DNA from: Candidatus Moraniibacteriota bacterium
GTDB taxonomy: Bacteria; Patescibacteriota; Minisyncoccia; Moranbacterales; UBA2206
Reading direction: 5' to 3'
DNA length: 64,000 nt
Assembly: GCA_049303905.1 (NCBI GenBank)
Contig: JBAQNP010000020.1
Location: forward strand, 78,309 to 142,308
Shown: positions 4,417 through 58,800 of the stretch, in pieces
Position numbering within the stretch: position 1 is the first letter of the stretch
Layout of the letters: the number at the start of each line of letters is the position of its first letter
Position numbers and translations under genes: made by a program
Notes under the pieces: generated by a model
Databases searched by the model: none
What the model saw: the letters and a program-made list of their open reading frames with translations, nothing else
What the model was told of the DNA's origin: nothing

Positions 4417-5484
4417 TCAACAATCTAACGCAACACCTGTCTTCTGATAAAATACCTCATACGGAGTAAAACCGCAATGTCTTTTTCGTGGACGACTATT
4501 GATTAAATATTCAACCTGAGAAATTTCCTGAGCGGATATTTTTTCAAAATCAGTTTTCTTAGGAAAGTATCTGCGAAACAACCCATTGGCATTTTCATTA
4601 GAGCCTCTTTCTTGCGAACAATACGGATGAGCGAAAAAACAGGAAAGATTAAGTTTTTCTTCAACTGTTTCATAATCAAGATTTTCTGTTCCTCTGTCGC
4701 GTGTTAAAGTTTTTCTAAACTCTACGGGAATATTTTTTAAACGATCAATCAAAACCTTATCACATTCCTTGGTAGTTCCATTGATTGCTTTTCCGAAAAA
4801 TACAAGACCGCTCACTCTTTCATTAACACTCTTTATTCTGAATTTACTTTCACGAGAAACTAAGGTGTCATCTTCCCAATGACCGATAGTTTTTCTTTCT
4901 AAGACTTCCTCTGGTCGTATCTCTATGGAAGGCAAGGTTGAATTTCTTTCTAATTTTTGGGCTTTACGCAAGCCCTTTTTCTGTCTACGCTTATGTCGAC
5001 GAGTTAAATATTTTCTTAAATCTTCACAGCCTCTCTTAATCGCTCCATTGCCTCGTCTGTGTATTTTAGAATAAACGAATTGATAAATAGCTTCATAAGA
5101 AATTCTCATTTTCTTATCATTTGGATAATCAATTGGCAAACGCAATTTTATTTGTTCGGGAGACCAACCCAATTTTAGTTTTTTAGTAGTGTAATCTTTC
5201 AGCGGTTCGTAATTGAATTTACTTTCCCTTCCTTGATTCTTGCGATTATTTTCAGATTTTTTCTGGGCTCTATCGGCATTGTATTTTCCTCTGCCAATTC
5301 TTGGCTTCCCATCTATCTCTCGACTGACTGCGGACTTGGGTCTGTTTAGCTCCTCAGCTATCTCTGACATCAATTTTTTGTCTATACAGTACCTATTTTC
5401 AATGATTACTCTTTCTTTGTAAACTATACGTTTGAATGTTTTGAGTCCGCCGGCTCTTTTTTGTAATTTATTCATACACTTCAT
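4417..5484 (-). CDS. IS30-family DDE transposase
   Basis: N-terminal HTH, then a DDE domain with the HWEDDT (HWEGD-like) motif and the IS30-typical spacing; 355 aa. Confidence 0.85.
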   Translation of the reverse strand: MKCMNKLQKRAGGLKTFKRIVYKERVIIENRYCIDKKLMSEIAEELNRPKSAVSREIDGKPRIGRGKYNADRAQKKSENNRKNQGRESKFNYEPLKDYTTKKLKLGWSPEQIKLRLPIDYPNDKKMRISYEAIYQFVYSKIHRRGNGAIKRGCEDLRKYLTRRHKRRQKKGLRKAQKLERNSTLPSIEIRPEEVLERKTIGHWEDDTLVSRESKFRIKSVNERVSGLVFFGKAINGTTKECDKVLIDRLKNIPVEFRKTLTRDRGTENLDYETVEEKLNLSCFFAHPYCSQERGSNENANGLFRRYFPKKTDFEKISAQEISQVEYLINSRPRKRHCGFTPYEVFYQKTGVALDC

Positions 5485-16852: not shown

Positions 16853-17030
16853 GAAATTTTGTTTATATTTTCAAAACACTCGTCATTTGGCGGGTGTTTT
16901 TTTGTTAATGACATATTTTTGGAGTAAAATAAAGAGGAGTTGATTATCGAAAAAAGTTATGCACACTACAAACTTTACAAAGGTTTAATTTAGTGATAAT
17001 ATATCATCGTAAGGAAATAAAAATAGAAAC

Positions 17031-17648
17031 ATGAACAAAGAAGAGATAAAAAAATTTATTGAATCATTCTTAGAAAAACAAGAACGAACTATTGTTATTG
17101 TAGATTATGGTAATGTTGAAAAATGGAAGAATAGTCTTGATTGGAAAGTAGGCACTAAAGAACTGGGGAACTTGGTTAAAAATTTTTCTAAAGGAAAGAA
17201 ATTTCTAAGAAGGTTTTATTATGGTTCAGATTATGGTAAAAGCGAGAATAATGAAAATTTGACTGGATGGTCACGTTCAATTCTAGAAAAAGCGGATATG
17301 AATAATTTTGAAGTAGTGACTAAGCGTGTAAAATACATCCATGATTTCAATAATAAAGCTGGATTTGAGAAAAAGTGTGACTTGGATGTTGAAATGGCAA
17401 TTGACTTAGTAAAAGAAAGAGAAAATTATGACACAATAATATTATTTTCTGGTGATGGTGATTTAATGTATGCGATAAAATATTTACATGATGAGTATAA
17501 GAAAGAAGGCTATGTTTTTGGTGCAAGAGATCATATTGGGAGAGAGATTTTTGATATGAAAAAAGAAGGAGTTATTAAGGATATTTTGTTTGCTGAAGAT
17601 TTTGAATATAGATTAAAAGATGCATATAATCCTAGTTTTTGGCGTTGA
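17031..17648 (+). CDS. NYN (LabA-like, PIN-fold) domain protein
   Basis: IVIVDYGNV…DLDVEMAIDLV…ILFSGDGDL matches the NYN acidic-residue constellation. Confidence 0.5.
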   Translation: MNKEEIKKFIESFLEKQERTIVIVDYGNVEKWKNSLDWKVGTKELGNLVKNFSKGKKFLRRFYYGSDYGKSENNENLTGWSRSILEKADMNNFEVVTKRVKYIHDFNNKAGFEKKCDLDVEMAIDLVKERENYDTIILFSGDGDLMYAIKYLHDEYKKEGYVFGARDHIGREIFDMKKEGVIKDILFAEDFEYRLKDAYNPSFWR

Positions 17649-17659
17649 TAAAATCAGAA

Positions 17660-17682
17660 AACCGCCTTACGGCGGTTATCGA
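17660..17682 (+). terminator. Hairpin ACCGCC-TTAC-GGCGGT (weak U-run)
   Basis: 6-bp GC stem just after the NYN stop codon. Confidence 0.35.
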
Positions 17683-17844
17683 TCAAAATGGGGCAGACCT
17701 AAAGTCTACGCTAATAATACTAGCATATATTGAAAAATATTTCAAGTGAGTTGTGGATAACTCTGAAAGGCGCTTTATTTAAGGGGTATAATTTGGAAAT
17801 CAGGGACACACTTTTGGCTTATTGGGAGAAAGGGGGTAAAATAG

Positions 17845-17893
17845 AAGTGTTAAGTAACCAGCCTCATCGGCGGACAAGCATGTTAAGTAACAA
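17845..17893. repeat. Island junction repeat (long form, GTTAAGT + CCTCATCGGCGGACAA core)
   Basis: GAAGTGTTAAGTAACCAGCCTCATCGGCGGACAAGCATGTTAAGTAACAA. Related copies at 18664, 26926, 27631, 28748. Confidence 0.45.
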
Positions 17894-17901
17894 TTAGCCA
17901 T

Positions 17902-18645
17902 ATGGAAAAAGACGAACAATACGAGAAAATTCTTCAACAAGCTAAAAATGATAGCGAGGTTCTTGGCTTTGCTTTGGTGGGAGGAAGAGGGAAAGGTTTT
18001 GTGACGGAAAATTCTGATTACGATATCTATATTATCACTTCCGAAAATTATCTGGATGAAGCTAAGAAAAAATATCCTTCAACTATAAAGCCATTTAAGT
18101 TTGATATTTTTGTGCATTCAATGACTTCCTTTAGAGAATATGCGAATTTTGGCACTTCACACAAATGGGATAGATATAATTTTACATATATCAAGGCTTT
18201 GTTTGATAACACGGATGGAGAATTTCAGAAACTTATCGATGAAAAAGGAAAAATTCCTGAAGATAGGGTGCGAGAAATAACCAAGGATAATCTTGATTCC
18301 TATATAAATTGTTTTTATCGTTCGGTGAAAAATCATCGAGACGGAAATGAATTTGCCTCATACTTGGATTCTACGGAATCTGTGCAGTGGTTGGTCGCTT
18401 TTGTTTTTTCGCTTGAAGGGCGAGTGAAGCCTTTTAGCAAATACATAGAGTGGGCTCTCAAAGAACATCCTTTGGAATTTTTGCCTTGGAGTGGAGAGGA
18501 CTTTATGTTAGTAATGAAAAAATTATTACAAATGGATAATATGGAATTTCAAAAAGAAGTTTTTCAAAAAATTTGCAAATTTGCGATAGAGCGAGGATAT
18601 AAAGAGATAATTGATAGTTGGGAGGGCTGCTATTTCGGGGAATGA
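17902..18645 (+). CDS. Pol-beta-fold nucleotidyltransferase (ANT(6)/Lnu-like)
   Basis: LGFALVGGRGKGFVTENSDYDIYIIT (a G-S-like motif plus paired Asp), followed by a helical C-terminal domain. Confidence 0.45.
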   Translation: MEKDEQYEKILQQAKNDSEVLGFALVGGRGKGFVTENSDYDIYIITSENYLDEAKKKYPSTIKPFKFDIFVHSMTSFREYANFGTSHKWDRYNFTYIKALFDNTDGEFQKLIDEKGKIPEDRVREITKDNLDSYINCFYRSVKNHRDGNEFASYLDSTESVQWLVAFVFSLEGRVKPFSKYIEWALKEHPLEFLPWSGEDFMLVMKKLLQMDNMEFQKEVFQKICKFAIERGYKEIIDSWEGCYFGE

Positions 18646-18663
18646 TTATTGATGGTAGAATGG

Positions 18664-18730
18664 AAGTGTTAAGTTCACCCTGTTAAATTGTGTTTTTTAT
18701 TTAATAGGGTAACATGTTAAGTAACATAAA
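18664..18730. repeat. Island junction repeat interrupted by a 43-bp MITE-like palindrome
   Basis: GAAGTGTTAAGT | TCACCCTGTTAAAT…ATTTAATAGGGTAA | CATGTTAAGTAACA. The inner palindrome (18672-18714) carries the same termini as 40065-40208. Confidence 0.45.
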
Positions 18731-18739
18731 TATAAACAT

Positions 18740-18922
18740 ATGCCTACGCGAAAAATTGAGGAGAAAAATGTACGCAAGCTAACGAGGATGGGGAGAGAGG
18801 GAAGTAGCCTCGGGATGACCATCCCCAAAGAACTCGCTCAAGAACTTGGTTGGCGGGAGCGTCAGAAGGTGGTGGTGAAAAAAGTTGGGAAGAATCTTGT
18901 AATTAGTGATTGGAAAAAATAA
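18740..18922 (+). CDS. AbrB/MazE/SpoVT-type small DNA-binding protein
   Basis: 60 aa; LTRMGREGSSLGMTIPKELAQELG…VVV…LVIS swapped-hairpin pattern. Locally GC-rich relative to its neighbours. Confidence 0.5.
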   Translation: MPTRKIEEKNVRKLTRMGREGSSLGMTIPKELAQELGWRERQKVVVKKVGKNLVISDWKK

Positions 18923-18937
18923 ATTTTTATAAAAATT

Positions 18938-20515
18938 ATGACCGAAGAACAAAAAAAGACTTTGGAGCGACAACTTTGGGGCGTGGCAAATGTTCTCAGA
19001 GGCAAGATGAATGCCGATGAATATAAAAATTATATTCTTGGCTTTATTTTCTATAAGTATCTCTCGGAGAAACTGGAACGCTATGTTGATACAAAACTCC
19101 TTGTGCGAGATAAGATTAAATTTTCTGAGATAAAAGAAAATACCAAGGAGGGAAAAGAATATTTGGAACACACGAAAAAGGCTTGTATCGATGAGCTGGG
19201 TTTTTTCCTGCGACCAACTGAACTTTTTTCCTATCTAGTCAAGAAAGGCAGAGGCGAGATTAAAAATGAAAAAACATTTATCATTGAAGATTTGAAAAAT
19301 ATCCTAAATGATATTGAAAAGACTTCTGCAGGAACAGCTAGTGAAGATGATTTCAAGGGCTTATTTGATGATATGGATTTGACTTCAACTAAGCTTGGTT
19401 CCAGGGAGAATGAAAAAAATGAAGTGGTGGTGGAGGTGCTCACTTTGCTTGACGGGATTGATTTTCAATTAGAAAACGCCAAAAGTGATTTGCTTGGTGA
19501 TGCCTATGAATATTTGATTGGAGAATTTGCCGCTGGAGCGGGGAAAAAGGGTGGTGAATTTTATACACCGGCTCAAGTATCGAGGCTTTTGGCTCAAATT
19601 GTTTCATTAGGTGAAACAAGGATTAAATCTGCCTATGATGCAACTTGCGGATCAGGATCTCTCTTGCTTCGTTTAGCAGAATTCACTAATGTGGCAAATT
19701 ATTATGGCCAAGAACTTAATCCGACAACATATAATCTGGCTCGAATGAATATGATTTTGCACGGAGTGCATTTTGATCATTTTTCAATTCTTAAAGGCGA
19801 TACACTTAAGGAAGATATGCATCCAGATCTTAAGGCACAAGCAATAGTCGCAAATCCACCTTTTTCATTAAAGTGGAAAGGAGACAGTGATCCACAATTG
19901 ATACATGATGAGCGTTTTTCACAATATGGTCGACTGGCTCCAAAAGATAGAGCTGATTATGCTTTTGTGACGCATATGCTTTATCACTTGGCTGACAACG
20001 GAACTATGGCGGTAGTATTGCCCCATGGTGTTCTTTTTGCAGGTGGAGCGAATCTTACAATTAGACAATATATCATAGAGAAACAGAATTATTTGGATAC
20101 TGTCATAGGTCTTCCTGCGAATTTATTTTATGGAGCTGCTATCCCAGCTACCGTTCTTGTTTTCAAAAAATGTCGTCGTGAAGATGAAGATATTTTGTTC
20201 ATTGATGCTTCAAAAGAATTTGAAAAAGGTAAAAATCAAAATCATTTGACCAATGAAAATCTGGAAAAGATTTTTGATACTTATAAAAATCGCCAAGAAA
20301 TTGAAAAATATTCCCATCGAGCGAGTCTTTCCGAAATAAAAGAAAACGAATTCAATCTCAATATTCCACGATATGTGGACACCTTTGAAGAAGAGGAGGC
20401 GATTGATATTGATGCAGTGGCAAAGAATTTGAAAGAATTGAACAAGAAAGAACTTGAATTTCAAGAAAAAATTGCAGGTTTTTGTGAGGAGTTGAAAATT
20501 GATAAGCCTTTTTAA
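18938..20515 (+). CDS. hsdM: Type I restriction-modification system, methyltransferase subunit
   Basis: N-terminal HsdM domain, motif I DATCGSGSLL, motif IV VANPPFS. Confidence 0.9.
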   Translation: MTEEQKKTLERQLWGVANVLRGKMNADEYKNYILGFIFYKYLSEKLERYVDTKLLVRDKIKFSEIKENTKEGKEYLEHTKKACIDELGFFLRPTELFSYLVKKGRGEIKNEKTFIIEDLKNILNDIEKTSAGTASEDDFKGLFDDMDLTSTKLGSRENEKNEVVVEVLTLLDGIDFQLENAKSDLLGDAYEYLIGEFAAGAGKKGGEFYTPAQVSRLLAQIVSLGETRIKSAYDATCGSGSLLLRLAEFTNVANYYGQELNPTTYNLARMNMILHGVHFDHFSILKGDTLKEDMHPDLKAQAIVANPPFSLKWKGDSDPQLIHDERFSQYGRLAPKDRADYAFVTHMLYHLADNGTMAVVLPHGVLFAGGANLTIRQYIIEKQNYLDTVIGLPANLFYGAAIPATVLVFKKCRREDEDILFIDASKEFEKGKNQNHLTNENLEKIFDTYKNRQEIEKYSHRASLSEIKENEFNLNIPRYVDTFEEEEAIDIDAVAKNLKELNKKELEFQEKIAGFCEELKIDKPF

Positions 20516-20523
20516 TAAGAAGT

Positions 20524-21099
20524 ATGAATTTAGATTTTCCAACAAGATTTTTAAAGAAGCTGGATATTTATCAGCAAATTAGAAATGGACAAGGTATTTC
20601 TAAGCATAAGAAATTATGGAAATACGAGGCTGCTTTTTTGCAGATTGCTTACGGCAATAGTCATCAATTTCTCAATGAATGTCCCAATGATGATATGGTA
20701 AAGGATTGGATAAAAAGAATAGAGAATGATTATGATGGTGACGCACTTCCTCAAGTTATTGGGAATTTAATTTGGCGAGGATATTTAATAAAAAAAGATA
20801 GTAGTACTTATAATATTACTAAAGAAGGATTGTTTGTTGGCGAAGTAGTAGCGGATATAAATAATAAAAGTTGTATTATTAAATTTTGGAATAAATATAG
20901 GTATAGTTTAATACTGGATTTGCTTTGGCTTGTAATAGCCATCGCTTTAATAAAATTATTTTTTCCTGAAAAATTTTTAAATGATATTCAAACATTCTTA
21001 CATTTAAATTCCATAAAAAATTATTTTATTGCAATTTTTATAGCATGGCCACTGTTTAATTGGATTTATAGAAGTTTTTATTCGGCGTTAGAAAAATAA
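20524..21099 (+). CDS. Hypothetical protein embedded in the hsd operon (two C-terminal TM helices)
   Basis: 191 aa; hydrophobic stretches LILDLLWLVIAIALIKLFF and YFIAIFIAWPLFNWIY. Confidence 0.4.
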   Translation: MNLDFPTRFLKKLDIYQQIRNGQGISKHKKLWKYEAAFLQIAYGNSHQFLNECPNDDMVKDWIKRIENDYDGDALPQVIGNLIWRGYLIKKDSSTYNITKEGLFVGEVVADINNKSCIIKFWNKYRYSLILDLLWLVIAIALIKLFFPEKFLNDIQTFLHLNSIKNYFIAIFIAWPLFNWIYRSFYSALEK

Positions 21100-21101
21100 A
21101 T

Positions 21102-22292
21102 ATGATAACCTTAGCTAAAACCAAAAATATTCCAAAACTTCGCTTTCCGGGTTTTTCTGATGAATGGGAAGAAAAGAAAATAAAAGATTTATTTGCTTTT
21201 AAGCAAGGAATTCAGGCTTCTGTAGAAACTCAATTATTTGAAAATATTTTTGGCACTGTAAGATTTATTAGGATTATTGATATAACACAATCAATAGAAT
21301 CTCCACGTTTCATTAAGGATCCTGGAAATATTTATCATGTGAGAAAAGAAGATTTATTTATGGTTAGATATGGCACACCCGGATTAATTTCAATCGGATA
21401 TGAAGGTGTAATTGCGAATAATCTCTTTCGATTAATTCCTGAACATAATAAACAAATAGATACAAAATTTTACTATTATAAATTTAAGCAGTTGGAAAAA
21501 AATATCTTAGCACTTTCAGGATCTTCTTCCATGCCAGCAATTAGTTTTTCAACATTAAATAACATAAAATTGCCAAAACCAATATTGGCTGAACAACAAA
21601 GGGTTGCTGAATTTTTGAGTTCAGTGGATGAGTGGATTTCTGATTTGCGAGGGCAAAAGGAAAGTTTGGAAAAATATAAAAAAGGAATGATGCAGAAAAT
21701 ATTTTCTCAAGAGATTAGATTCAAAGATGAAAATGGAAAGAATTTTCCGGAGTGGGAGGAAAAGAAGTTGGGGGATATTGGAAAGTTTTGGAATGGCAAA
21801 GCTCATGAACAAGAGATTTCTGAGAATGGAAAATATATTGTAATAAATTCAAAATTTATTTCACAAAATGGTAAGGTGAAAAAATATTCAAATAGCCAAA
21901 ATTCACCGCTTAAAAAAGATGATGTTGCTATTGTGATGAGTGATATTCCAAATGGTAAGGCTATTGGTAAATGCTTTTTGGTTGATAAAGATAATTTTTA
22001 CACACTAAATCAAAGAATTGGCGGTATTAAATCATCGGAGATTTTAAGTTCTTTTCTAATCCGAATATTAAGTCGAAATAAATATTTTTTGAAATTTGAT
22101 AATGGAGTAAGTCAAACGAATTTAAGGAAGGATGATATTCTAAGATGCCCAGTCGTATTTCCAATTATTCAGGAACAACAAAAAATTTCTGAATTTTTGG
22201 GATCAATTGATAATTTAATAGAATCTAAGCAACAACAAATAACTCAAGCTGAGCAGTGGAAAAAAGGTTTGATGCAGGGGTTGTTTGTATAA
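21102..22292 (+). CDS. hsdS: Type I restriction-modification system, specificity subunit
   Basis: Two target-recognition-domain halves, each followed by a conserved coiled region (…LISDLRGQKESLEKYKKGMMQKIF… and …QQQITQAEQWKKGLMQGLF). Confidence 0.8.
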   Translation: MITLAKTKNIPKLRFPGFSDEWEEKKIKDLFAFKQGIQASVETQLFENIFGTVRFIRIIDITQSIESPRFIKDPGNIYHVRKEDLFMVRYGTPGLISIGYEGVIANNLFRLIPEHNKQIDTKFYYYKFKQLEKNILALSGSSSMPAISFSTLNNIKLPKPILAEQQRVAEFLSSVDEWISDLRGQKESLEKYKKGMMQKIFSQEIRFKDENGKNFPEWEEKKLGDIGKFWNGKAHEQEISENGKYIVINSKFISQNGKVKKYSNSQNSPLKKDDVAIVMSDIPNGKAIGKCFLVDKDNFYTLNQRIGGIKSSEILSSFLIRILSRNKYFLKFDNGVSQTNLRKDDILRCPVVFPIIQEQQKISEFLGSIDNLIESKQQQITQAEQWKKGLMQGLFV

Positions 22293-22295
22293 ATT

Positions 22296-24125
22296 ATGAG
22301 TATAAATAAACACATCGAAGAATATCTAGATTATTATTGTGATTTCGCAAAAGATCTGCCGTTTGCTGTTTTGCTAAAAGGAAAATGGGGTTGTGGAAAA
22401 ACTTATTTTATAAAGAATTATATTGACCTAAGGAAAGATAAGAAAATTTTGCATGTTAGCTTATATGGCGTTGACAGTTTTAATGGGGTAAAAGAAAAAA
22501 TAATTATTGAATTGCTTCCATTCATCCCAGAAAAATATAGTAATTTTGCAAGTATCCTATATAAAAATATAAAAAAAATACCAAAAATTAGAGATTGGGT
22601 TCCATCTGATGCGGATGAGTTGTTAGTTGATATTTTTTTAAAAAAAAGTAATGGGTGCGTATTTGTCTTTGATGATCTTGAGAGATGTAATATAGAAATT
22701 GATAAACTACTTGGGTATATAAATAATTTTGTAGAATTTAAAAATCAAAAAGTTATTTTAATTGCAAATGAAGAAAATATATTAGACTCAAAAAGTGGTG
22801 ATAAATACAGGAAAATCAAAGAAAAATTAATCGGAAAAGAATTTTATATTAATCCTTCCCGGGAAGAGGCCATAATTCTATTTATCGAAGAAATAACAGA
22901 TGAAGGTCTAGGAAAATATTTAGAAAATATAAAAAAAATTCTTTCAGAAATATTTATTCAATCTAAATGCGATAATTTGAGATTAATTCAGCAAGCATTA
23001 TTTAATTTTGAATACTACTTTAAAAGTTTTTCAAGTAAGGCCAAGGAAGACGTTGAATTATTCGAAAGGATGTTTTATGAATTTATTGTAATTTTTATTG
23101 AGCATAAGAAAGGAGAAATAAAGAGTGATGAATTTTTCAAGGAATACCCCCAATTTTTTAAAGGATTACATGCAGATAAGGAAGTTATTCATTGTCTGGA
23201 TAAATATAAGTACGGGCTATCTAGTTGGCTTACTTGTTTTGATGTAAGTGTGTTAGGTAAGATTTTGCAAGGGATTGATTTATCTGAGAGTGAGAAGGCC
23301 GAAATGATTAGTAGATTTGAAAATTTTTCAGATGTCAACAAGGAATCTTGGCAAAAAACATGGTATCTTTATGAGCAGAGTGACGAAATTTTTTTCGAAA
23401 ATTTATTGGATGTTCAGGGAAAATGGGCAAAAAAAGAATATCTTGACCTATCTGTGGTTCTGCATGTTTTTGGGATGTTCTTAGATTTTTCTAAAAATGA
23501 ATTATTTCAAAAAACTAAAGAAGAAATATTAAAGGAAGGTAGGGAGTATATCGAATTTTTAATCGAAAAAGAAAAAATCCCTTTGAATATAAGGGAACAG
23601 AACGCAGGATTTAGTTGGAGGGAAAGTGCTTATGGTCTTCAATATACTGGAATGCAAAATGAAGAATGGAAAGAATTAATAAAATTTGTAGATGAAAAGC
23701 TGGAAAACCTAAAAGGAACTTATATTAAACAAAAAATTAAAGATGAATTGATGCCAATTCTAAGAGGAGAAAAAAGCTCTGAGCAGAGTTTGGATTTGTT
23801 GATGAATTATAATTTTTTTCATCATAATGGGAATAGAGAATCATATTTTCAATATTTTGATGTAAACGAAATAGTAAGTATTTTAATTGAGGGTGATCGT
23901 ATGTTTTTAGCTGCTTTGAAAAAAACTTTCAAAGAAAGATTTGAAAAAATGTCAACGCAGATAAGTGGTATTGAGCAAGAACTGCCATTTCTTGAAAAGT
24001 TAAATAAAGAGCTAGAAAATGAGATTAAAAAAATAGAAGAAAAATTTGGAAATAAAAAAACGCCAAGATCACTTTTAATAAAAAGTTTTATTAATGAAGC
24101 AATAAAGCCATTCATAAAAAAATAA
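22296..24125 (+). CDS. KAP-family P-loop NTPase
   Basis: KAP-type Walker [15 protein letters not shown] (GxWGxGKT) and Walker [10 protein letters not shown]; long helical C-terminal half. Sits between hsdS and hsdR, the PrrC position of prr-type loci. Confidence 0.6.
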
Positions 24126-24126
24126 T

Positions 24127-26925
24127 ATGACACACCAATCTGAACAAAAACTCGAAAAAACTCTAATCTCCCAACTTAATCGTTTGGGATTTGAGAGTGT
24201 GCAAATTGAAGACAATAATGCTTTGCAAAAAAATCTCAAAATCCAGCTGGAAAAATTTAATAAGATAACTTTTTCCGATGATGAATTTGTTCGCATTCTA
24301 AATCACGTTGAAAAAGGCGATCGATTCTATAAGGCAAAAACACTGCGTGATAGATTTGCATTAAAAAGAGACAACGAGGAGACTTTTTTTGTACGATTTT
24401 TTAATATGGATCAGTGGTGCAAAAATGAATATCAAGTAACACAGCAAATCACTCAAGTTGGAAGATATGAAAATCGCTATGATGTGACACTCTTGGTTAA
24501 TGGTTTGCCTTTGGTGCAAATCGAACTCAAACGCCGAGGGATGGAACTCAAAGAAGCTTTCAATCAAATTCAACGCTATCACAAGCATTCATTTACGGGA
24601 ACACTGTTTGAATATATTCAAATTTTTGTGATTTCCAATGGAGTAAATACTAAATATTTTTCTAATAATCCCAAGCAAACATTTGAACAGACTTTTTATT
24701 GGACAGATGCGGAGAATCGCAAAATTACCAAGCTGGATGAATTTGCGGAAATATTTTTGGCAAAATGCACAGTTTCGGAAATGATTGCGGAATATATCGT
24801 GCTCGCTGAGGCGATCAAGATTCCAATGACCCTTCGTCCATATCAATATTACGCTGTTCGAGCAATTGAAGATCGAGTGCGGGAATCAAACAAGAATGGT
24901 TATATCTGGCACACGACTGGAAGTGGCAAAACGCTCACTTCATATAAAGCTAGTCAAATACTTTCGAAGATTCCTGAAGTGAAGAAAGTGCTTTTTGTGG
25001 TAGATCGAAAAGATCTAGATATTCAAACGACTAAAGAATTCAATTCTTTTTCAGAAGGAGCAGTGGATGGCACAGGTAATACACATAGTCTGGTGAAACA
25101 ATTGGCGGACAAAAACCGAAAACTAATTGTGACAACAATTCAAAAATTGGACATTGCAATTGGTCGAGAAGTCTATCTCAAACAATTTGAATATTTGCAA
25201 AATGAAAAAGTGGTAATTATTTTTGACGAATGTCACCGCAGTCAATTTGGACAAACTCACGCGAGGATCAAAGGATTTTTCACTCAAGCACAATTGTTTG
25301 GATTTACTGGAACTCCAATTTTTGCGGATAACAATGTGGGTGGAGTGACAACAGTAGATGTGTTTGGGGAATGCTTGCATAAATATATTATTACCCATGC
25401 GATTTCTGATAATAATGTGCTGGGTTTTGCGGTTGAATATGTCGGGAAATATAAGCAGAAAGATCCAGACACACTGGATGCGGATATTTTTGCTGAAACT
25501 TTAGTGAAGGGGGTTGATACTAGGGAAGTATTGGAAAGTGATGATCGACTAAACAAAATTACAGACTATGTTTTGGCAGATTGGAAACGAAAAACAAAAA
25601 ATGGAAAGTTCAATGCAATCATGGCTGTTTCTTCTGTTGAAGTTTTGAAGAAATATTATAAATTACTAAAGGCTAAAAAAGCAGAAGATTTTTCCATTGC
25701 CACGATTTTTACTTATAAAGCCAATGAGGATGAGAGTTCGGATATGCTGGATGTGGATATTTTTGGCGATGAAAATTCTACCATCAATAAGCACTCCAGA
25801 GATTTTTTGGAGGAGTGTATTAAGGATTATAACAAGCGATACTTAACAAATTTTTCCACCGATCGTTTCTATGATTATTATCGAGATTTGCAAAAGCGAA
25901 TCAAAGAAAAGCAAGTGGATTTGGTGTTGGTGGTGAATATGTTTTTGACTGGATTTGATAGCCCACGGCTTAATACTTTGTATGTGGATAAAAACTTACG
26001 CTATCATGGATTGATTCAGGCCTATTCTAGAACAAACCGGCTTTTGAATTCTGATAAACCACACGGGAACATTGTAACATTTAGAAATCTGAAAGAAGCA
26101 ACTGATAGAGCCTTGGCACTTTTTGGTGATGAGAATGCTAAAGAAGTGGTGTTTAAGAAACCTTATGAAGTGCAGAAAAAAGAATTTGAAGACAAGTTGG
26201 CGGAGCTCAAAGAAAAAGTCCCAACAGTTTTCAGTGTTGATGAACTGAAAGGGGAGGAAGAAAAAGCAGAATTTGTGAAAACATTTCGAGATTTGCTTCG
26301 CATCAAATCATCGCTGGAAACATTTGCTGATTTTTCATTTAAGGATCTTGGAATAACGGAGCAAGAATTTTATGATTATCAAAGTAAATATTTAGATGTC
26401 TATGAAGATCGAAAAAACAATGACAGCGGAGTCGAATCAATTTTAGATCAGATAGATTTTGAAATTGAACTCACGGTGAGGGATGTGATTGATTTTGATT
26501 ATATCATTCAGCTTATTGCCGGACTTAAAAATATTAGTTCTGATGTGGTTCGTAAAAAGAAAACAGAAGAGATTTTGCGTTTGTTTGATCGGGATGTCCA
26601 ATTGCGAAAGAAGAAAGATTTGATCAAGAAATTTATCGAAGAGAATTTACCACGCATTGGCAAGTCGGATGATGTAGAAAAAGCCTTCAGTGATTTTTGG
26701 GCTAGTGAGCGTGCGGATAGCCTTAAGATTATTGCCAAGAATGAAAATATTCCAGTAGAGAAATTTGAACATTTGATTGGCGAATATCTATACACTCAAA
26801 AACTTCCTAATGGTCAGGATATTGTCGAGATGTTGCCAGAAGTGCCAATGATTAGAGAGCGACAAGGAATCATCGATCGTATCAAGGGAGCAATTGAAAA
26901 TATTGTGGATATGTTTGAGTGGTAG
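24127..26925 (+). CDS. hsdR: Type I restriction enzyme, R subunit
   Basis: N-terminal nuclease region, helicase motif I HTTGSGKT, motif [11 protein letters not shown]-terminal helical domain; 932 aa. Confidence 0.9.
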
Positions 26926-26962
26926 AAGTTTTTTGTTCAGTAACATGTTAAGTAACACTTTT
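26926..26962. repeat. Island junction repeat (short form)
   Basis: TTTTTGTTCAGTAACATGTTAAGTAACACTTTTT immediately after the hsdR stop. Confidence 0.45.
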
Positions 26963-26973
26963 TAAAAAAAACT

Positions 26974-27627
26974 ATGAATAAAAAGAAAATAATTGAAGCT
27001 ACTAAAGATTATGTAAAACTGAAAATGGAAGGGGATGGTTCGGGGCATGATTTTTGGCATGTTTATCGAGTTTGGAAAATGGCAATGCAAATTGGCAAAA
27101 AAGAAAAAGCGGATATGTTCATAGTTGAGCTCGGCGCGTTGCTTCATGATATTGCTGATTTTAAATTTAATAATGGTGATGATACTGTTGGAGCGAAAGT
27201 TTCTCGGGCTTGGCTAGAAAAACAGAAGGTAGATGAAAAGATAATTAAACACGTATGCAATATTGTTAATGGTGTGTCCTTTAAGGGAGCTGGAGTAAAA
27301 TCAGAAATTAAAACTAAGGAAGGGATGGTAGTTCAAGATGCTGATAGACTAGATGCCTTAGGAGCAATTGGAATAGCTAGAGTTTTTGCTTATGGTGGAA
27401 CTAAGGGAAGAGAAATATATAACCCAGAAATTAAACCTACAAAAAGCAAGTCATTTGAGGAATATAAAAAAGCTAACATAACCAGTATTAATCATTTTTA
27501 CGAAAAATTACTCTTACTTAAAGATTTGATGAATACTAAAACAGGCAAAAAGATGGCAAGTGAAAGGCATAAATTCACAAAACAGTATCTGGATAGATTT
27601 CTAAAAGAATGGGATGGAAAACTTTAA
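26974..27627 (+). CDS. HD-superfamily metal-dependent phosphohydrolase
   Basis: H…HD (GHDFWHVYRV…LLHDIADF) and a downstream DADRLDALG motif. Confidence 0.7.
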   Translation: MNKKKIIEATKDYVKLKMEGDGSGHDFWHVYRVWKMAMQIGKKEKADMFIVELGALLHDIADFKFNNGDDTVGAKVSRAWLEKQKVDEKIIKHVCNIVNGVSFKGAGVKSEIKTKEGMVVQDADRLDALGAIGIARVFAYGGTKGREIYNPEIKPTKSKSFEEYKKANITSINHFYEKLLLLKDLMNTKTGKKMASERHKFTKQYLDRFLKEWDGKL

Positions 27628-27630
27628 TAT

Positions 27631-27685
27631 AACTTTTTGTTCAGCCCACCTCATCGGCGGACAAATAACACTTTTTACATAAAAA
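27631..27685. repeat. Island junction repeat (long form)
   Basis: TTTTTGTTCAGCCCACCTCATCGGCGGACAAATAACACTTTTT; shares CCTCATCGGCGGACAA with 17862. Confidence 0.45.
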
Positions 27686-27883
27686 TATGACAGAAAAACA
27701 ACAACTTAATTTAGATTTTGAAAAAGCCGTTAGGATGATGGCGAAAACCAGAAAATTTCGATGATCCGATTTTTGAAAAATTAATTATGTAATTGTAAAT
27801 GAGAAGCTATCCACAGCCCAAGAGTTGCCAGGATTAGTTTAGAGTGATATAATATCATCATCATAATACTAAACTAAAAAAAT

Positions 27884-28738
27884 ATGACTAAAAAAACAAA
27901 AAATAATCTGGTAATTTTTGAGGAACATTCTGTTCGAAGAGAGTGGGATGGAAAAAAAGAAAAATGGTATTTTTCTGTTATCGATATCATTTCCGTGCTT
28001 GTTGAACAGCCTGATTTTAGAAAGGCAAAGAGTTATTGGACGACACTAAAAGGCCGACTCAAAAAGGAAGGCAGTGAGTTGGTCACAAAATGTGACCAAC
28101 TGAAAATGCAATCGGCTGACGGAAAATTTTATAAAACAGATGTAGCTAGCATAGAAACAATTTTGCGCTTAATTCAATCTATACCGAGCAAAAAAGCTGA
28201 GCCTTTCAAATTGTGGTTGGCAAAAGTGGGAAAGGAAAGAATTGATGAAATTGCTGATCCGGAATTAGCAGTCAGCAGAGCTAAGGGAATTTATGAGAAA
28301 AAAGGTTATCCAAAAGATTGGGTGGACAAGAGAATGAGAGGAATTGCTGTAAGGAATACTTTGACTGATGAGTGGAGTGAAAGAGATATAAAAAAAGGAA
28401 ATGAATTTGGAATTTTGACTAATGAGATTTATAAAAATACTTTTGATGAGGATTATAAGTCTCTAATGAAGATAAAGAATTTAGACAAGAAAAATAAGGA
28501 TAATTTGAGAGATCACATGGGGGATATTGAGTTGATTTTGACAATGTTGGCTGAGGCAACTTCTACTGACATTTCCAGATCAAAAAATTCAAAAGGATTG
28601 GAAGAGATCCGAATTGATGTCAAAAAAGGCGGAAAGATTGCAGGGGAGGCAAGGGAGAAAATTGAAAAAGAAACTAATCGGAAAGTTGTGATGAGAGGAA
28701 ATTTTAAAGAAGCGGGTGGTCAAAAAAAGTTGAAATAA
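27884..28738 (+). CDS. Bro-N-like domain protein (phage antirepressor-like N-terminus)
   Basis: The N-terminal ~120 aa (VRREWDGKKEKWYFSVIDIISVLV…) resemble a Bro-N fold; the C-terminal half is charged and helical. Confidence 0.35.
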   Translation: MTKKTKNNLVIFEEHSVRREWDGKKEKWYFSVIDIISVLVEQPDFRKAKSYWTTLKGRLKKEGSELVTKCDQLKMQSADGKFYKTDVASIETILRLIQSIPSKKAEPFKLWLAKVGKERIDEIADPELAVSRAKGIYEKKGYPKDWVDKRMRGIAVRNTLTDEWSERDIKKGNEFGILTNEIYKNTFDEDYKSLMKIKNLDKKNKDNLRDHMGDIELILTMLAEATSTDISRSKNSKGLEEIRIDVKKGGKIAGEAREKIEKETNRKVVMRGNFKEAGGQKKLK

Positions 28739-28747
28739 TTTTTTGTT

Positions 28748-28795
28748 CAGTAATATATTAAGTAACACCTTTTTAATTTTTGGATTATGTGACTA
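28748..28795. repeat. Island junction repeat (short form)
   Basis: TTTTTTGTTCAGTAATATATTAAGTAACACCTTTTT. Confidence 0.45.
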
Positions 28796-28850
28796 AAAAA
28801 TTTGATTGTTATTGGCTAACAACTCATTGCAAAGGCGATATTTCAGAAAT

Positions 28851-32355: not shown

Positions 32356-32754
32356 ATGCATATAAAAACAAAAGGATATATAGCTGAGATATATGTTACG
32401 GCTAAACTAATAGAAGATGGATGGAGAGTGCTAAATCCAATCGGTGAAAATAATCGATATGATTTAGTCGCCGAAAGAAAGGGGAAGTTTATTAGAATTC
32501 AGGTTAAATATGTTACGCCTAAAGACGGTGCCCTAGCTGTTAATTGCAGAAGTAGCAATAATTGGTCAGTTCTGCATTATTCTCCTGAAGAAATTGATTC
32601 CATTGCTGTTTTTAATTCAAAAGATAAATCAATTTATTTTGTGCCAGTTTCAAAAATAAATCATAGTCTGTTTAAATTAAGAATAGAGCCGGCAAAAAAT
32701 AATCAAAAAACAAAGATTCATTTAGCGAAAGATTTTATTAGATTAAAATATTAA
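32356..32754 (+). CDS. Hjc-like PD-(D/E)xK nuclease-fold protein
   Basis: E…G…YDLVAERKGKFIRIQVKY matches the D…E-x-K core of Hjc/restriction-endonuclease-like resolvases. Inserted between two tRNA genes. Confidence 0.4.
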   Translation: MHIKTKGYIAEIYVTAKLIEDGWRVLNPIGENNRYDLVAERKGKFIRIQVKYVTPKDGALAVNCRSSNNWSVLHYSPEEIDSIAVFNSKDKSIYFVPVSKINHSLFKLRIEPAKNNQKTKIHLAKDFIRLKY

Positions 32755-34269: not shown

Positions 34270-35004
34270 ATGAACAAATCTAACCTCGTTTTTCTGGACA
34301 CAGAAACGACCGGAAAGGGGCCGTTGGATCGGTTATGTCAAATTGCCTATAGTTTTAAGGGAGAAGAATTCGATTCACTTTTCAAGCCTCCTATTCCAAT
34401 TCAAGTGGAAGCTATGGCCATTACTCATATCACCAATAAGATGGTGGAAGATAAGGAGGCATTTATTGATTCCGAATTTCAAAAAAAATTAATCGATATT
34501 TTTCTGGAAAAAAATATTCTAGTGGCGCATAATGCGCAGTTTGATGTGGAAATGCTCAAAAAAGAAAATGTTGAAGTTAGTCATTTTATTGATACTTTGA
34601 AAATTGCACATCACTTAGACAAGGAAGGAAAAATTCCTAAGCACGGTTTGCAATATTTGAGATATTTTCTTGATCTGAATATTTGCGATGTAGTTCCGCA
34701 TAGTGCGCTAGGAGATGTGAGAGTTCTAGAAAAACTTTTCGAGCGTCTTTTTCAAAAAATGTTGGTTGAATTCAAAGAAGAATCCGCGGTCATTGATGAG
34801 ATGCTCAGAATTTCGACTTTGCCAATTTTGATGAAAAAATTTCCTTTTGGAAAATATAATGGGCGTATGGTTTCCGAAATTGCCAAAATTGACGCAGGAT
34901 ACTTACAATGGCTTTTGAATAGTAAGATAGAGGCGAGGGAGAAAGATGGTGATAACGATGAGAATTGGATTTATACTCTTGAATATTATCTGATGCCAAG
35001 ATAG
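34270..35004 (+). CDS. DnaQ-like 3'-5' exonuclease (DEDDh) with a DUF3820-like C-terminal domain
   Basis: Exo I LVFLDTETTG, Exo II VAHNAQFDVEML, Exo III HSALGDVRVLEKLF; C-terminal KFPFGKYNGRMVSEIAKIDAGYLQWLL. Confidence 0.75.
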   Translation: MNKSNLVFLDTETTGKGPLDRLCQIAYSFKGEEFDSLFKPPIPIQVEAMAITHITNKMVEDKEAFIDSEFQKKLIDIFLEKNILVAHNAQFDVEMLKKENVEVSHFIDTLKIAHHLDKEGKIPKHGLQYLRYFLDLNICDVVPHSALGDVRVLEKLFERLFQKMLVEFKEESAVIDEMLRISTLPILMKKFPFGKYNGRMVSEIAKIDAGYLQWLLNSKIEAREKDGDNDENWIYTLEYYLMPR

Positions 35005-35591
35005 TGTGTTATAATGAAAACAGAAAAAACATGCCAAAAGTAAAACCAAAAACAAAAGCGAAAATAAAAAAAGAAAAGGAGTATGTAGAAAATGATCTCG
35101 ATGCTGTGGTGGCTTTTTTAGATGGGCTTTCTCATCGAATTATTGAGAGAACGAGAAATATCGATGCGCAGTCCAATGTGCTGATTGGTCTTAGTACTGG
35201 TATCTTTATTCTCGCAATCAATGAGATAATGAACGTGGAACGGTTTCACATCACACTTTCGCTCGTGGCGATTTTTTCAGCTCTCAGCTCCATTATCGCT
35301 CTTTTGGCGATTCGTCCGCCTGGTTGGATGGTAAAAAAAGGCCAAGAACAAAGTTTGCTGTTTACTCAAACAATTGCTGATTTTGATTCGGCCAAAAAAT
35401 ATTCCATAGAGCTCAAGAAGATATTAAATTGCGATGAAGAAATTTTTCATCAGTATGCCATTGAAATTTATAACTTGTCAAAATATTACTATCGCCCTAA
35501 AAGAAAACTGTTTGCGATTTCCCGAAATATTTTTCTTTTTGGGGTAATTTCCAGTCTAGTGCTCTTGTTTTTGGAAGCGAAATTTCTTTGA
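35004..35591 (+). CDS. Hypothetical membrane protein
   Basis: 195 aa with three hydrophobic helices; start overlaps the previous stop. Confidence 0.4.
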   Translation: MCYNENRKNMPKVKPKTKAKIKKEKEYVENDLDAVVAFLDGLSHRIIERTRNIDAQSNVLIGLSTGIFILAINEIMNVERFHITLSLVAIFSALSSIIALLAIRPPGWMVKKGQEQSLLFTQTIADFDSAKKYSIELKKILNCDEEIFHQYAIEIYNLSKYYYRPKRKLFAISRNIFLFGVISSLVLLFLEAKFL

Positions 35592-38792: not shown

Positions 38793-40064
38793 TTATTTCA
38801 ACTCTTTTATAATATCTTCAATCTTCACAATCCTACTTTCTTTTCCGGCACGTTTTTTGATTTCTACCCAGCCCGCATCGCTACGCGAAGCGTTGCTGGC
38901 GGGTCCGCCGTACTCTAATGTTTTTTTGCTGATAACAATGCGATAGGGAATACCAATTAAATCTGAATCGGCGAATTTTTCTCCGGCGGAAGTTTCTCGG
39001 TCGTCATAGAGAACTTCAATTCCACTCTTGGATAAATTATCATAAATCTCTTGTGCCTGTTCATTCTGAGAAAGACTAATCAGATGAACTTTAAAAGGCG
39101 CTACTGCTTCTGGCCAGATAATTCCTTTTTCGTCGTTGTTAGTTTCGACAATTGTTCCCATAAGTCTTGAGATGCCTATTCCGTATGATCCCATATAAAC
39201 TAATTGCTCGTTGCTATTTTCATCTTTATATTTCAAATTAAAAGGCTCTGAAAATTTATAGCCCAAAGAAAATATATTTCCAACTTCGATGGCTTTTTTT
39301 TCAATTAATTTATTTTTATTTAAATCAAGGTCTTTTAAAACTTCATCATTAAAAACTTCTTTATTGATAGCTATATTTTTTTCTTCATCGATATATATAA
39401 TATCTTCTCCGGCTTCTGAAATAGTTTGAAATTCATGAGAATATTTAGAAAAAGTTCCGCCCGAAGCAAAAGTTAGAAATGTTCTATTTCCTAGACCAAC
39501 TCTATTAAAAATATTTTTATAAGCAATTTTAGCTTTTTCGTAATAAGTGTTATGCTCTTCTTCATTTCTAGAAAAAGAATATAGCGCTTTCCAAAAAAAT
39601 TCTCTACCTCGCATAATTCCTGATTTTGCTCTTGCTTCATTTCTAAAGACAGTTCTAATGTCGTATGCATATATCGGAAGATCTTTGTATGATGAAATAA
39701 AATTAGTCATTAAATTTGACATAGGTTCTTCGTGAGTAAATCCTAAGCCAAGTTCAGTTCCATTTTTTAGGGTGGTTTTAAACCAATTATCTACAATTTT
39801 ATCATCCCAACGATTAGTTTTTTCCCAAACTTCCTTTTTCTGAAGAGCGGTGGATTGTATCTCAACACCACCAGTTTTATTCATTTCATCCCTAACTATG
39901 GCGGATATTTTATTAATAACTTTTAATCCTAATGGTAAAATAGAATAAATTCCTGCCATTTCTTTATTGATAAATCCAGCGCGAATAAGAAGTTGTGCAT
40001 TTAGACTCACTTCGTCTTTGGGGGCATTTTTTTGAGTTTTGGTGAAAAGTTGTGATTGTTTCAT
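38793..40064 (-). CDS. proS: Proline--tRNA ligase (short form)
   Basis: Class II motifs and an N-terminal region typical of ProRS; 423 aa. Confidence 0.8.
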   Translation of the reverse strand: MKQSQLFTKTQKNAPKDEVSLNAQLLIRAGFINKEMAGIYSILPLGLKVINKISAIVRDEMNKTGGVEIQSTALQKKEVWEKTNRWDDKIVDNWFKTTLKNGTELGLGFTHEEPMSNLMTNFISSYKDLPIYAYDIRTVFRNEARAKSGIMRGREFFWKALYSFSRNEEEHNTYYEKAKIAYKNIFNRVGLGNRTFLTFASGGTFSKYSHEFQTISEAGEDIIYIDEEKNIAINKEVFNDEVLKDLDLNKNKLIEKKAIEVGNIFSLGYKFSEPFNLKYKDENSNEQLVYMGSYGIGISRLMGTIVETNNDEKGIIWPEAVAPFKVHLISLSQNEQAQEIYDNLSKSGIEVLYDDRETSAGEKFADSDLIGIPYRIVISKKTLEYGGPASNASRSDAGWVEIKKRAGKESRIVKIEDIIKELK

Positions 40065-40208
40065 TTACCCTGTTAAATAAGATTTGTATTTTACTGTAAA
40101 ATACAGCTTATTTTGATTATGCTATTTAAATTTTTTACCCAGTTTTTATTTGAATATATACAAATCTAATTTTAATTTTTTTAAATTAAAATTATTTAAC
40201 AGGGTGAA
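40065..40208. repeat. 144-bp MITE-like element with 15-17-bp terminal inverted repeats (TTCACCCTGTTAAATAA)
   Basis: TACCCTGTTAAATAA at 40066 and TTATTTAACAGGGTGAA at 40190; nested inner palindromes GATTTGTAT…ATACAAATC and TATTTTAC-TG-TAAAATA. Confidence 0.55.
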
Positions 40209-40304
40209 TTTTATATTAATGATTATCTTAAGAATATGGTTTATTTCAATGTTTGTCAAAGCAAGAATTTGTGGCAGAGGCGGTGCGTTGACCGCCTCTG
40301 ACTT

Positions 40305-42556: not shown

Positions 42557-42581
42557 TATCTGTAGTCATCTAAATGACCCC

Positions 42582-42609
42582 TTGACAATTTTTTTGTATT
42601 TGCTATGCT
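42582..42609 (+). promoter_or_regulatory. Promoter of cassette copy 1 (TTGACA-16-TATGCT)
   Basis: Conserved with the copy-2 promoter at 57886 (TTGACA-17-TATACT). Followed by the conserved TTTATCNAAGTAAAGTG. Confidence 0.5.
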
Positions 42610-42645
42610 TTATCTAAGTAAAGTGATTTATTAAAGTAAAGCAAT

Positions 42646-42972
42646 ATGAAAAAGTTAAATGATAGTAAGAATGAAGATTTAATGCAAGCTATTTTGGCGC
42701 TTGAAAACAAGCAAGAAGCCAAGATGTTTTTGCGTGACCTTTTGACGGAAAAGGAAATTTTAGAATTGGGCAATCGCTGGAAAGCGGTGCAAATGTTAGA
42801 CGCGAAAAAAACTTATTCTGAAATTGAAAAAGAAACCGGCCTTAGCTCAACTACTGTGGCGCGAATTTCCAAATGGTTTCAAGCAGGCACAGGCGGATAT
42901 GGTTTAATGCTAAAAAGAATTTCTAAGAATCATCACAGAACCCCTTCTAGTTCTAGAAAGCGGTTGATTTAG
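42646..42972 (+). CDS. TrpR-like (YerC/YecD family) DNA-binding protein, copy 1
   Basis: FLRDLLTEKEILELGNRWKAVQML…TYSEIEKETGLSSTTVARISKWFQAGTGGY matches the Trp-repressor-fold YerC family. Confidence 0.7.
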   Translation: MKKLNDSKNEDLMQAILALENKQEAKMFLRDLLTEKEILELGNRWKAVQMLDAKKTYSEIEKETGLSSTTVARISKWFQAGTGGYGLMLKRISKNHHRTPSSSRKRLI

Positions 42973-43079
42973 ATTTTTAGTTATATATCTTCACAAACCT
43001 CTTTCTGGGATAGGAAGAGGTTTTTTAAATTTGGACCTCTTAATATTAGTACATTAAAAATTAAATAGAGGAGAAGAAA

Positions 43080-43934: not shown

Positions 43935-43940
43935 GAAATA

Positions 43941-43980
43941 AGGGCGTGATGAATATCATTCATCCGCCCTTTCTAATTTT
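43941..43980 (+). terminator. Rho-independent terminator (conserved in both cassette copies)
   Basis: GGGCG-TGATGAAT-ATC-ATTCATC-CGCCC followed by TTTCTAATTTTT. Confidence 0.65.
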
Positions 43981-57838: not shown

Positions 57839-57885
57839 TTAAAGGGAGATTAAAGGGGTCGGTACCTCTTTAGTTGTTTTTTGTC

Positions 57886-57914: not shown

Positions 57915-57940
57915 TTATCAAAGTAAAGTGGTATAAAACG

Positions 57941-58773: not shown

Positions 58774-58800
58774 ACTAAAAAAACAAAAGGAGAAAAAGAA

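Follow-up and report, generated by a model that had tools for sequence, protein, structure and literature searches.

What are the short, related repeats that separate the genes of a variable island in a Candidatus Moraniibacteriota contig? The stretch analysed here, 64 kb long and hereafter called the window (34% GC, with its closest protein matches in metagenome-assembled genomes (MAGs) of Moranbacteria or Patescibacteria), contains five such junction elements, which the initial annotation had read either as recombination sites bounding an integron- or CALIN-like cassette array (CALIN, cluster of attC sites lacking an integron integrase) or as operator sites. We suggest that they are probably arrays of 12-bp palindromic operator boxes (TGTTA-NN-TAACA), bound by a protein of 60 amino acids (aa) with an AbrB/MazE/SpoVT fold whose gene lies in the same island at 18740-18922. 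Sequence architecture, synteny, symmetric covariation and protein fold are the basis for this pairing, and from them we infer binding, repression and the promoter used.

All five elements are present, well above chance expectation. Their building block is the 12-bp palindromic unit TGTTMAGTAACA, composed of the arms TGTTA and TAACA around two central bases, and two units usually stand in tandem. The elements, the gene of the proposed regulator and the promoter in front of the first element are the following:

17844-17893 (units and insert 17848-17892), plus strand: el1, with TGTTAAGTAACC at 17848-17859, a GC-rich insert at 17860-17880 and TGTTAAGTAACA at 17881-17892
18663-18727 (18653-18726 with its promoter part), plus strand: el2, with an extended -10-like TGGTAGAAT, GGAAG, a split unit, an insert and an intact unit
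26929-26963, plus strand: el3, with a T-run, TGTTCAGTAACA, TGTTAAGTAACA, C and a T-run; units at 26934 and 26946
27634-27676, plus strand: el4, with TTTTTGTTCAG, a GC hairpin insert (16-mer at 27649-27664), ATAACAC and a T-run; a single unit split by the insert
28739-28775, plus strand: el5, with a T-run, TGTTCAGTAATA, TATTAAGTAACA, CC and a T-run; units at 28744 and 28756
18740-18922, plus strand: gene of the 60-aa AbrB/MazE/SpoVT-fold protein, the proposed box-binding regulator (Pfam, AlphaFold/Foldseek)
17814-17842, plus strand: sigma-70-like promoter TTGGCT-N17-TAAAAT (promoter scan), its end 5 nt ahead of the first el1 unit

The first element ends 9 nt before the start of a nucleotidyltransferase gene, and its 21-nt GC hairpin insert holds a 16-mer at 17862-17877. 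In el2, which ends 13 nt before the AbrB gene, the first unit (18667-18674 plus 18711-18714) is split by an AT-rich inverted-repeat insert at 18675-18710 and the second occupies 18715-18726; the insert, previously described as a 43-bp miniature inverted-repeat transposable element (MITE), is in fact an inverted repeat of 35-36 nt. The third element begins 3 nt after the hsdR stop codon, and its last unit ends 16 nt before an HD-domain gene, while el5 is the last feature of the island, facing the minus-strand gene rpmE. The coordinates first assigned to four of the elements hold to within 1-3 nt, whereas el5 had been placed at 28748-28795, beginning about 9 nt late and ending about 20 nt too far. 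Likewise, the rule that the elements lie 1-10 nt after stop codons describes el3 to el5 (0-6 nt) but fails for el1, which is 199 nt past the stop of an NYN gene, and for el2 at 21 nt (8 nt if the conserved GGTAGAATGGAAG is counted). The proposed core GTTAAGT does occur in el1 to el3, but the elements are built on the 12-bp palindrome and not on that string.

Units with at most one mismatch to TGTTANNTAACA occur 11 times in the window, against a mean of 3.0 and a maximum of 7 in 200 first-order Markov simulations; tandem doublets were observed twice and in none of the 200 simulations. The 16-mer has exactly two copies, where 0.13 matches at up to three mismatches are expected. Strong box copies are all found within the 11.9-kb island and none in the remaining 52 kb, and with its five elements the window is the densest locus known to us, most others holding a single element.

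The protein encoded at 18740-18922, which is identical to a protein (P0121) on a 142-kb Moraniibacteriota contig, matches the Pfam family MazE_antitoxin (PF04014) with 29.8 bits (cut-off 24.7). Its AlphaFold model, built with 27 homologues, reaches a mean predicted local distance difference test (pLDDT) score of 70, and the top PDB matches are MazE, AbrB, VapB and SpoVT with probabilities of 0.95-0.99; the top seven in Foldseek are all MazE or AbrB (probability 0.80-0.99, TM score 0.45-0.61), but with E-values of about 0.1-0.3. PDB sequence matches, to AbrB and antidote chains, are likewise weak (E about 0.2-0.3). As modelled, the protein thus belongs to the AbrB/MazE/SpoVT superfamily and has its swapped-hairpin beta-barrel DNA-binding domain. 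It resembles the solved members (PDB 1ub4, 1yfb, 2k1n, 5l6l) in its small size, its best structural matches and its Pfam score above cut-off, and the palindromic sites upstream of its own gene recall the autoregulation of antitoxins. Unlike MazE and VapB it has no toxin partner, unlike SpoVT it is much shorter, and its sequence similarity to the solved members is weak. No toxin gene (MazF/PemK, PIN, Doc and so on) follows the AbrB gene: the next gene is hsdM in the window and encodes a methylase, RadC, a sigma factor or TspO at other loci, and the protein is therefore not an antitoxin of the MazE or VapB type.

The same boxes are found in about 35 other loci of Patescibacteria, recovered by scans of genomes and metagenomes. 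When one genome per species was scanned for the pattern, 24 stretches were recovered, of which about 12, all from Patescibacteria MAGs, have the full frame; among the 116 stretches returned from metagenomes, about 25 are true members, of the 24-nt class and on contigs of 29-43% GC. Scans of viral contigs gave no match to the box doublet, and the 16 matches to the 16-mer there were all chance occurrences in unrelated GC-rich or coding contexts. Downstream of the element an AbrB-like gene (59-62 aa) was observed in nine of the pattern-found loci as well as after el2, and the distance from the last unit to its start is 4-18 nt in seven of the nine, the exceptions being L109 (149 nt) and L112/L129 (486 nt). 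On the other side, hsdR is the gene upstream of the element in four loci.

The converse test started from the AbrB protein, with seven homologue contexts, six of them new, fetched regardless of their DNA. Two to four units lie at most 30 nt from the AbrB start codon in six of these seven, and over all fetched loci 12 of 15 distinct AbrB-like genes (54-64 aa) have one to four units 4-30 nt upstream (inside a limit of 75 nt), often right behind a sigma-70-like promoter. For instance, three units precede the homologues in L164 (93% identity), in L181 (69%) and, in a glycosyltransferase context, in L165/L166 (68%), where the middle one is flipped as it is in L074, while L082 has four units. The homologue of L173 (64%, beside dnaA-dnaN) is preceded by TGTTACGTAACA and a second unit 6 nt before its ATG, and that of L168 (67%) by TGTAAGTAATA-TATTACGTAATA-CATTACTTACA, in which TATTACGTAATA shows the symmetric change G2A/C11T. 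The most distant homologue (L179, 49%) has no boxes directly upstream; it is translationally coupled to a NUDIX gene, which makes this case uninformative. Homologues down to 64% identity therefore retain the arrangement, with boxes that are altered yet still palindromic (TGTTACGTAACA, TATTACGTAATA). Palindrome-keeping changes, flipped units and a unit number of one to four are as predicted for the duplex site of a dimeric protein, and judged by sequence neither a recombination core nor a linear RNA motif would be expected to show them. The operator-site option raised at the outset is supported by units that immediately precede AbrB-family genes in numerous unrelated settings, follow promoter-like sequence and change symmetrically.

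Such a distribution could also be produced if the elements were selfish or neutral dispersed repeats, similar to repetitive extragenic palindromic (REP) sequences or MITEs, that spread in AT-rich intergenic DNA and reached the AbrB genes by hitch-hiking. They are indeed short and palindromic and occur on many contigs of the same MAGs (three of UBA2206, two of UBA4824), and two other small inverted-repeat inserts are hosted in or have hit elements. The copy density is low, however, with about one element per locus outside islands; the placement of the elements with respect to promoter and AbrB start codon is kept across homologues of 64-100% identity in unrelated contexts, and the boxes diverge together with the protein. 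We regard this explanation as very unlikely. A role as DNA uptake sequence was rejected because the density of elements is much too low.

In nine loci the boxes are preceded by a terminator T-run and the conserved module TTGATTTATTGGGGGAAAGGGGGTA(A/G)AAT(A/G)GAAG, within which TTGATT-N17-TA(A/G)AAT ends 5 nt before unit 1; the promoter at 17814-17842 belongs to this module. A box that begins 5 nt after the -10 hexamer would cover the transcription start, the position of a repressor site. In the class I elements (el1 and el2) the boxes would accordingly lie over the start of a conserved sigma-70-like promoter, 5 nt past its -10, and a bound dimer or tetramer would repress the nucleotidyltransferase gene as well as the AbrB gene itself and the Type I restriction-modification (R-M) genes that follow it. 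In class II (el3 to el5), boxes framed by T-runs stand in very short gaps after hsdR, HD and Bro-N, 2-30 nt before the next start codon, which has no Shine-Dalgarno (SD) sequence; here the boxes may bring the following module under the same regulator or prevent read-through. The arrangement would resemble the control of R-M systems by C proteins and C-boxes, with an AbrB-fold protein in their place.

Several observations weigh against operator boxes. The terminal copies, el5 and its positional counterparts in L035 and L163, lack a co-oriented gene that they could regulate, and several other copies, beside housekeeping genes such as rmlC/rmlB, atpA and ruvB, have no AbrB gene within 8-14 kb. 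Relative to the neighbouring genes the elements keep a constant strand polarity (CAG/AAG centres, T-runs on both sides, the upstream TAA in the left flank), a feature that is not needed in a symmetric operator. Nor does the operator reading account for the T-runs that frame class II or for the conserved left flank RAAATAATTTTT of that class, which often provides the upstream stop codon, and class II elements show no convincing -35/-10 pair. Moreover, the spacer of the class I promoter contains an SD-like G-run (GGAGG, GGGGG, GAGGG), 9 nt ahead of a GTG found where unit 1 starts, and the boxes could therefore sit in a short translated leader open reading frame (ORF; MLSN...). Finally, regulation alone does not explain the reshuffling of modules at a box in locus L017, described below.

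Polarity and the G-run would both be accommodated if the elements acted in the transcript, either as signals for antitermination or pausing of the nut or ops kind, with a boxA-like UGUUMAGUAACA that is optionally joined by a boxB-like GC hairpin, or as leader ORFs (SD-GTG-MLSN...) feeding ribosomes to genes without an SD sequence. The elements do occupy 5' leaders and intergenic junctions, TAACA(A) is common to the unit and boxA, the downstream genes have no SD, and AGGGT-N4-ATG is recreated by the insert of el2. In L112 and L137, however, G-run and GTG are about 25 nt apart, more than an SD would allow, and the peptides differ in length and sequence after MLSN. A canonical boxA was not found in the window, where Rfam gave only tRNAs at the gathering threshold, and an E-value-mode scan of the island gave nothing at the elements. 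The basic form, represented by el3 and el5, is less structured as RNA than its shuffles (z-scores +1.42 and +0.81) and has single-strand DNA minimum free energies of -2.7 and 0 kcal/mol (z-scores -0.12 and +1.46), so that it is without RNA or single-strand structure, as fits a duplex protein site. The symmetric changes in L168 and L173 and the flipped units are likewise the signature of a duplex dimer site and not of a linear RNA motif. Altogether, a function in the transcript seems unlikely to us. Intrinsic terminators at the elements were also considered and rejected, with weak stems, energies no better than those of shuffles and no call by the terminator scan.

The 16-mer of the GC-rich insert forms the hairpin CCTCATCGGCGGACAA, which has a GC stem of 5 bp, the loop TCATC and ACAAG behind it, and it keeps a constant orientation and always lies between or inside units (el1, el4, L017, L026 and L163). 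A 15/16 match occurs in the 16S rRNA leader of L018 (14836-14885 of that locus), where the flanks TTTTTGTTC...ACGAGCAT are also the same and the hairpin stands 13 nt upstream of the boxA-like GAACTTTAACAAG; this is the single rRNA leader that was available for comparison. The string GAACTTTAACAAG has CTTTAACAA in common with the E. coli rrn boxA. Similarity to the boxB-boxA region of rrn leaders resides in the near-identical CCGCC-TCATC-GGCGG-AC(A/G)AGCAT, but in the window no canonical boxA follows the hairpin, which is also missing from most boxes. A second similar hairpin, CCCGCC-TC-GGCGGG-ACAAAG, is seen about 100 nt further on in L018. By its sequence, and with one rRNA leader to compare, the 16-mer suggests a transcribed boxB-like or 5'-stabilising hairpin, which may be separate from the protein site. 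Read on its minus strand, the 16-mer also contains a hammerhead-like CUGAUGA, which was discarded, as by eye its U4 is C and no GAAA is present.

The other insert, that of el2, is absent from the corresponding junction in L031. It is a short copy of an inverted-repeat family (TCACCCTGTTAAAT ... ATTTAACAGGGTGA) that is also found in L040, L043 and L109, in the last of these between the boxes and the AbrB gene, and a 145-nt copy lies at 40065-40210 in the window, upstream of the minus-strand gene 38793-40064. Its right arm places an SD-like AGGGT 3-5 nt before an ATG, and the family may serve to sequester SD sequences in a hairpin, or it may be a small mobile element. Insertion of the IS200/IS605 type 3' of TTAC is a possible origin of the el2 insert, but it would not account for the GC insert.

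To weigh the recombination readings, the island and its modules must be described. Apart from the elements, the regulator gene and the first promoter, its features are as follows:

16933-28831, plus strand: variable island from the rpsI terminator to the rpmE terminator; in comparison with L163, 89% identity in the flanking core and a different interior
17902-18645, plus strand: nucleotidyltransferase-like gene, module 1 (weak Pfam match to NTP_transf_2)
18938-26925, plus strand: Type I R-M block of hsdM, an unknown gene, hsdS, a KAP NTPase gene and hsdR (Pfam)
26974-27627, plus strand: HD phosphohydrolase gene, module 3 (Pfam)
27805-27853, plus strand: second portable promoter, upstream of the Bro-N gene; CTATCCACAG, then TTGCCA-N17-TATAAT
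27884-28738, plus strand: Bro-N domain gene, module 4 (Pfam)

Pfam agrees with the four modules first proposed (nucleotidyltransferase, the NTP_transf_2 match being weak; MazE_antitoxin/AbrB with HsdM, HsdS, KAP NTPase and HsdR; HD; Bro-N), and the island as a whole contains genes for NYN, nucleotidyltransferase, the 60-aa MazE/AbrB protein, HsdM, an unknown protein, HsdS, KAP NTPase, HsdR, HD and Bro-N. Exact-protein look-ups of the HD and nucleotidyltransferase proteins returned no record.

The initial annotation noted that GTTAAGT fits the GTTRRRY core of integron attC sites. It does match, but it is merely part of the 12-bp palindrome and also occurs in solitary copies upstream of AbrB genes. 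An attC site is an imperfect inverted repeat (R''-L''...L'-R') of 57-141 nt that folds as a single-strand hairpin, and IntI is encoded with attI and Pc beside the array, or is lacking in CALINs. The island shares with such arrays its co-oriented modules, each followed by a related repeat that often overlaps the upstream stop codon, and the GTTRRRY string. The elements differ in being 24-45 bp long, shorter than any attC site known to us, in the unfolded basic form, in units that vary in number and can be flipped, in promoters within the array and in being mostly solitary elsewhere; IntI was not found. Indeed, as first stated, no integrase gene is present in the window: phmmer searches of ORFs of at least 80 aa, seeded with XerD, a Patescibacteria phage-type integrase and the gamma-delta resolvase, gave no tyrosine or serine recombinase match at E<=0.01 in the window and 38 family loci, about 250 kb in all. 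With no recombinase, unfolded basic elements and variable unit number and orientation, the integron- or CALIN-like array is not supported.

A broader version makes the boxes crossover sites of a site-specific recombinase encoded elsewhere, whether attC-like, Xer/dif-like as in the pdif sites of Acinetobacter, or a serine-recombinase site of 24 bp centred on AT; the modules would then be mobile cassettes. In its favour, the modules are co-oriented and bounded by repeats, and the doublet is an imperfect 24-bp palindrome around AT. Furthermore, the modular picture itself holds: the cargo of the rpsI|rpmE gap differs among the window, L035 and L163, and in L017, a 1.8-kb contig of a close relative, Bro-N (88% identical) and HD (94.6%) stand in reverse order. 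Where the window has hsdR-el3-HD-el4-BroN-el5, L017 has BroN-box-HD, with the breakpoint inside a hybrid element whose left flank matches el5 and whose right flank matches el3. Similarly, the nucleotidyltransferase module lies between two class I elements, while L163 has one element followed directly by AbrB, and terminal class II copies mark the border of island and core in the window, L035 and L163 and stand before rpsL in L164. As in Acinetobacter, accessory modules without a recombinase gene of their own are bounded by short imperfect palindromes, but a pdif site has 28 bp (11-6-11) and its orientation alternates around the modules, whereas the island elements are 12-bp multiples in one orientation and on a promoter, and no XerD-like ORF was found within the window. 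The boxes are, moreover, closely linked to AbrB genes and their promoter, and homologous recombination between repeats of 35-50 bp can account for the reshuffling. We therefore consider a dedicated recombinase very unlikely. The HD gene was also rejected as a cassette-borne gene, its homologues of about 80% identity in other Patescibacteria lying in ordinary contexts without boxes.

Operator boxes and exchange of modules at them are possible together, and such exchange does seem to have taken place. By their sequence, the exchanges are compatible with homologous recombination between repeated regulatory cassettes, for which a dedicated enzyme is not required. It is conceivable, though we hold it with considerable reserve, that the boxes double as portable junctions, modules being swapped, inserted or lost with a 35-50 bp promoter/operator cassette by recombination at the boxes in fixed gaps of translation-gene clusters (rpsI|rpmE and before rpsL).

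The left flank of the island is rpsD-rpoA-rplQ-rplM-rpsI and its right flank rpmE(-)-rpsB-tsf, and homology of the core to L163, from a related genome, ends at 16932 and restarts at 28832. The same gap is filled in L163 with Fic, AbrB, an EcoRI-like methylase, GmrSD and other genes, and in L035 with a LexA-like gene and an unknown gene; since the three loci fill it differently, the rpsI|rpmE gap is a defence-island hotspot with variable cargo. In L163 the EcoRI-like methylase follows the box-AbrB layout, as LexA-like and N6_Mtase genes do in L173 and L181. The assembly GCA_030654225.1, the source of L163 and L164, has defence islets within several translation-gene clusters (rpsI/rpmE, directly before rpsL, and fusA/tuf with AbiEii), and its two AbrB paralogues are each downstream of a Fic-domain gene.

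Directly after el4, a 26-codon ORF (27688-27768), with first bases similar to the starts of the hsdM and Bro-N genes (direct-repeat family D2), may be the stump of a lost module. The second portable promoter consists of AAGTTATCCACAG (a perfect DnaA-box-like 9-mer), N7, AGTTGCCA, N17 and TGATATAATATCAT; it is found at 27805-27860 before Bro-N, with a weaker copy at 16956-17005 before the NYN gene, and in L026, L027 and L040 (on the reverse strand of each locus) and L164 (12803) it precedes BroN/RhuM-like or other island genes. It often lies directly downstream of a class II element, and the DnaA-box-like TTATCCACA boxes belong to this module and are separate from the elements. A few other features are seen outside the island. 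These include two more accessory genes, a PD-(D/E)XK endonuclease gene between tRNA-Thr and tRNA-Tyr (32356-32754) and a gene with a PycTM (Pycsar effector-like) domain after an RNase T/ExoX-like gene (35004-35591), and a minus-strand ORF of 355 aa (4417-5484) that resembles an IS30-family transposase by eye, with HTH_38 below cut-off as its only Pfam match. A segment of 1.4-1.8 kb is present in two copies that are 88-89% identical (42581-43981 and 57885-59701) and, on our own reading of the translations, contains a TrpR-like small gene and a HisG-like gene.

Among known systems, the closest functional analogue appears to be the C-protein/C-box circuit of R-M systems, by analogy of layout and with a different fold (PMC2175313, PMC2504287). 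As in systems such as C.PvuII, C.AhdI and C.Esp1396I (PMC2175313, PMC2504287, PMC3488213), a small regulator gene heads the R-M genes (el2, the AbrB gene, hsdM), two adjacent palindromic operators lie at the regulator's own promoter, their binding being predicted here, and additional copies of the operator can act on further genes of the same system. Unlike the C proteins, which have an Xre-type helix-turn-helix, the island regulator has matches to the swapped-hairpin fold of AbrB/MazE (PF04014; MazE, AbrB and VapB), and the R-M system of the island is of Type I and includes a KAP NTPase. Boxes are present, too, at modules that are not R-M genes (HD, Bro-N, nucleotidyltransferase) and, in other genomes, beside housekeeping genes. 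Literature searches on the motif, on Patescibacteria integrons and on AbrB controllers found nothing relevant and, in the literature covered, no description of the protein-box pair.

The locus cautions that a match to GTTRRRY does not by itself make integron sites of short repeats between co-oriented genes, and it marks a recurrent defence-island hotspot inside ribosomal-protein gene clusters. It also supplies a conserved promoter module and a testable regulator-operator pair, the 60-aa AbrB-fold protein and the TGTTA-NN-TAACA boxes, for the uncultured, reduced-genome Patescibacteria, in which gene regulation is barely known. If the boxes were in addition portable junctions, they would represent an integrase-free, regulator-linked cassette system in this group, with incoming modules automatically placed under one AbrB-type controller. 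The shared boxes are evidence that a Type I R-M system and the neighbouring defence and accessory genes have one control element in common, and this would extend the principle of the C proteins, the delayed and autoregulated expression of restriction genes, to another protein fold and to Type I systems.

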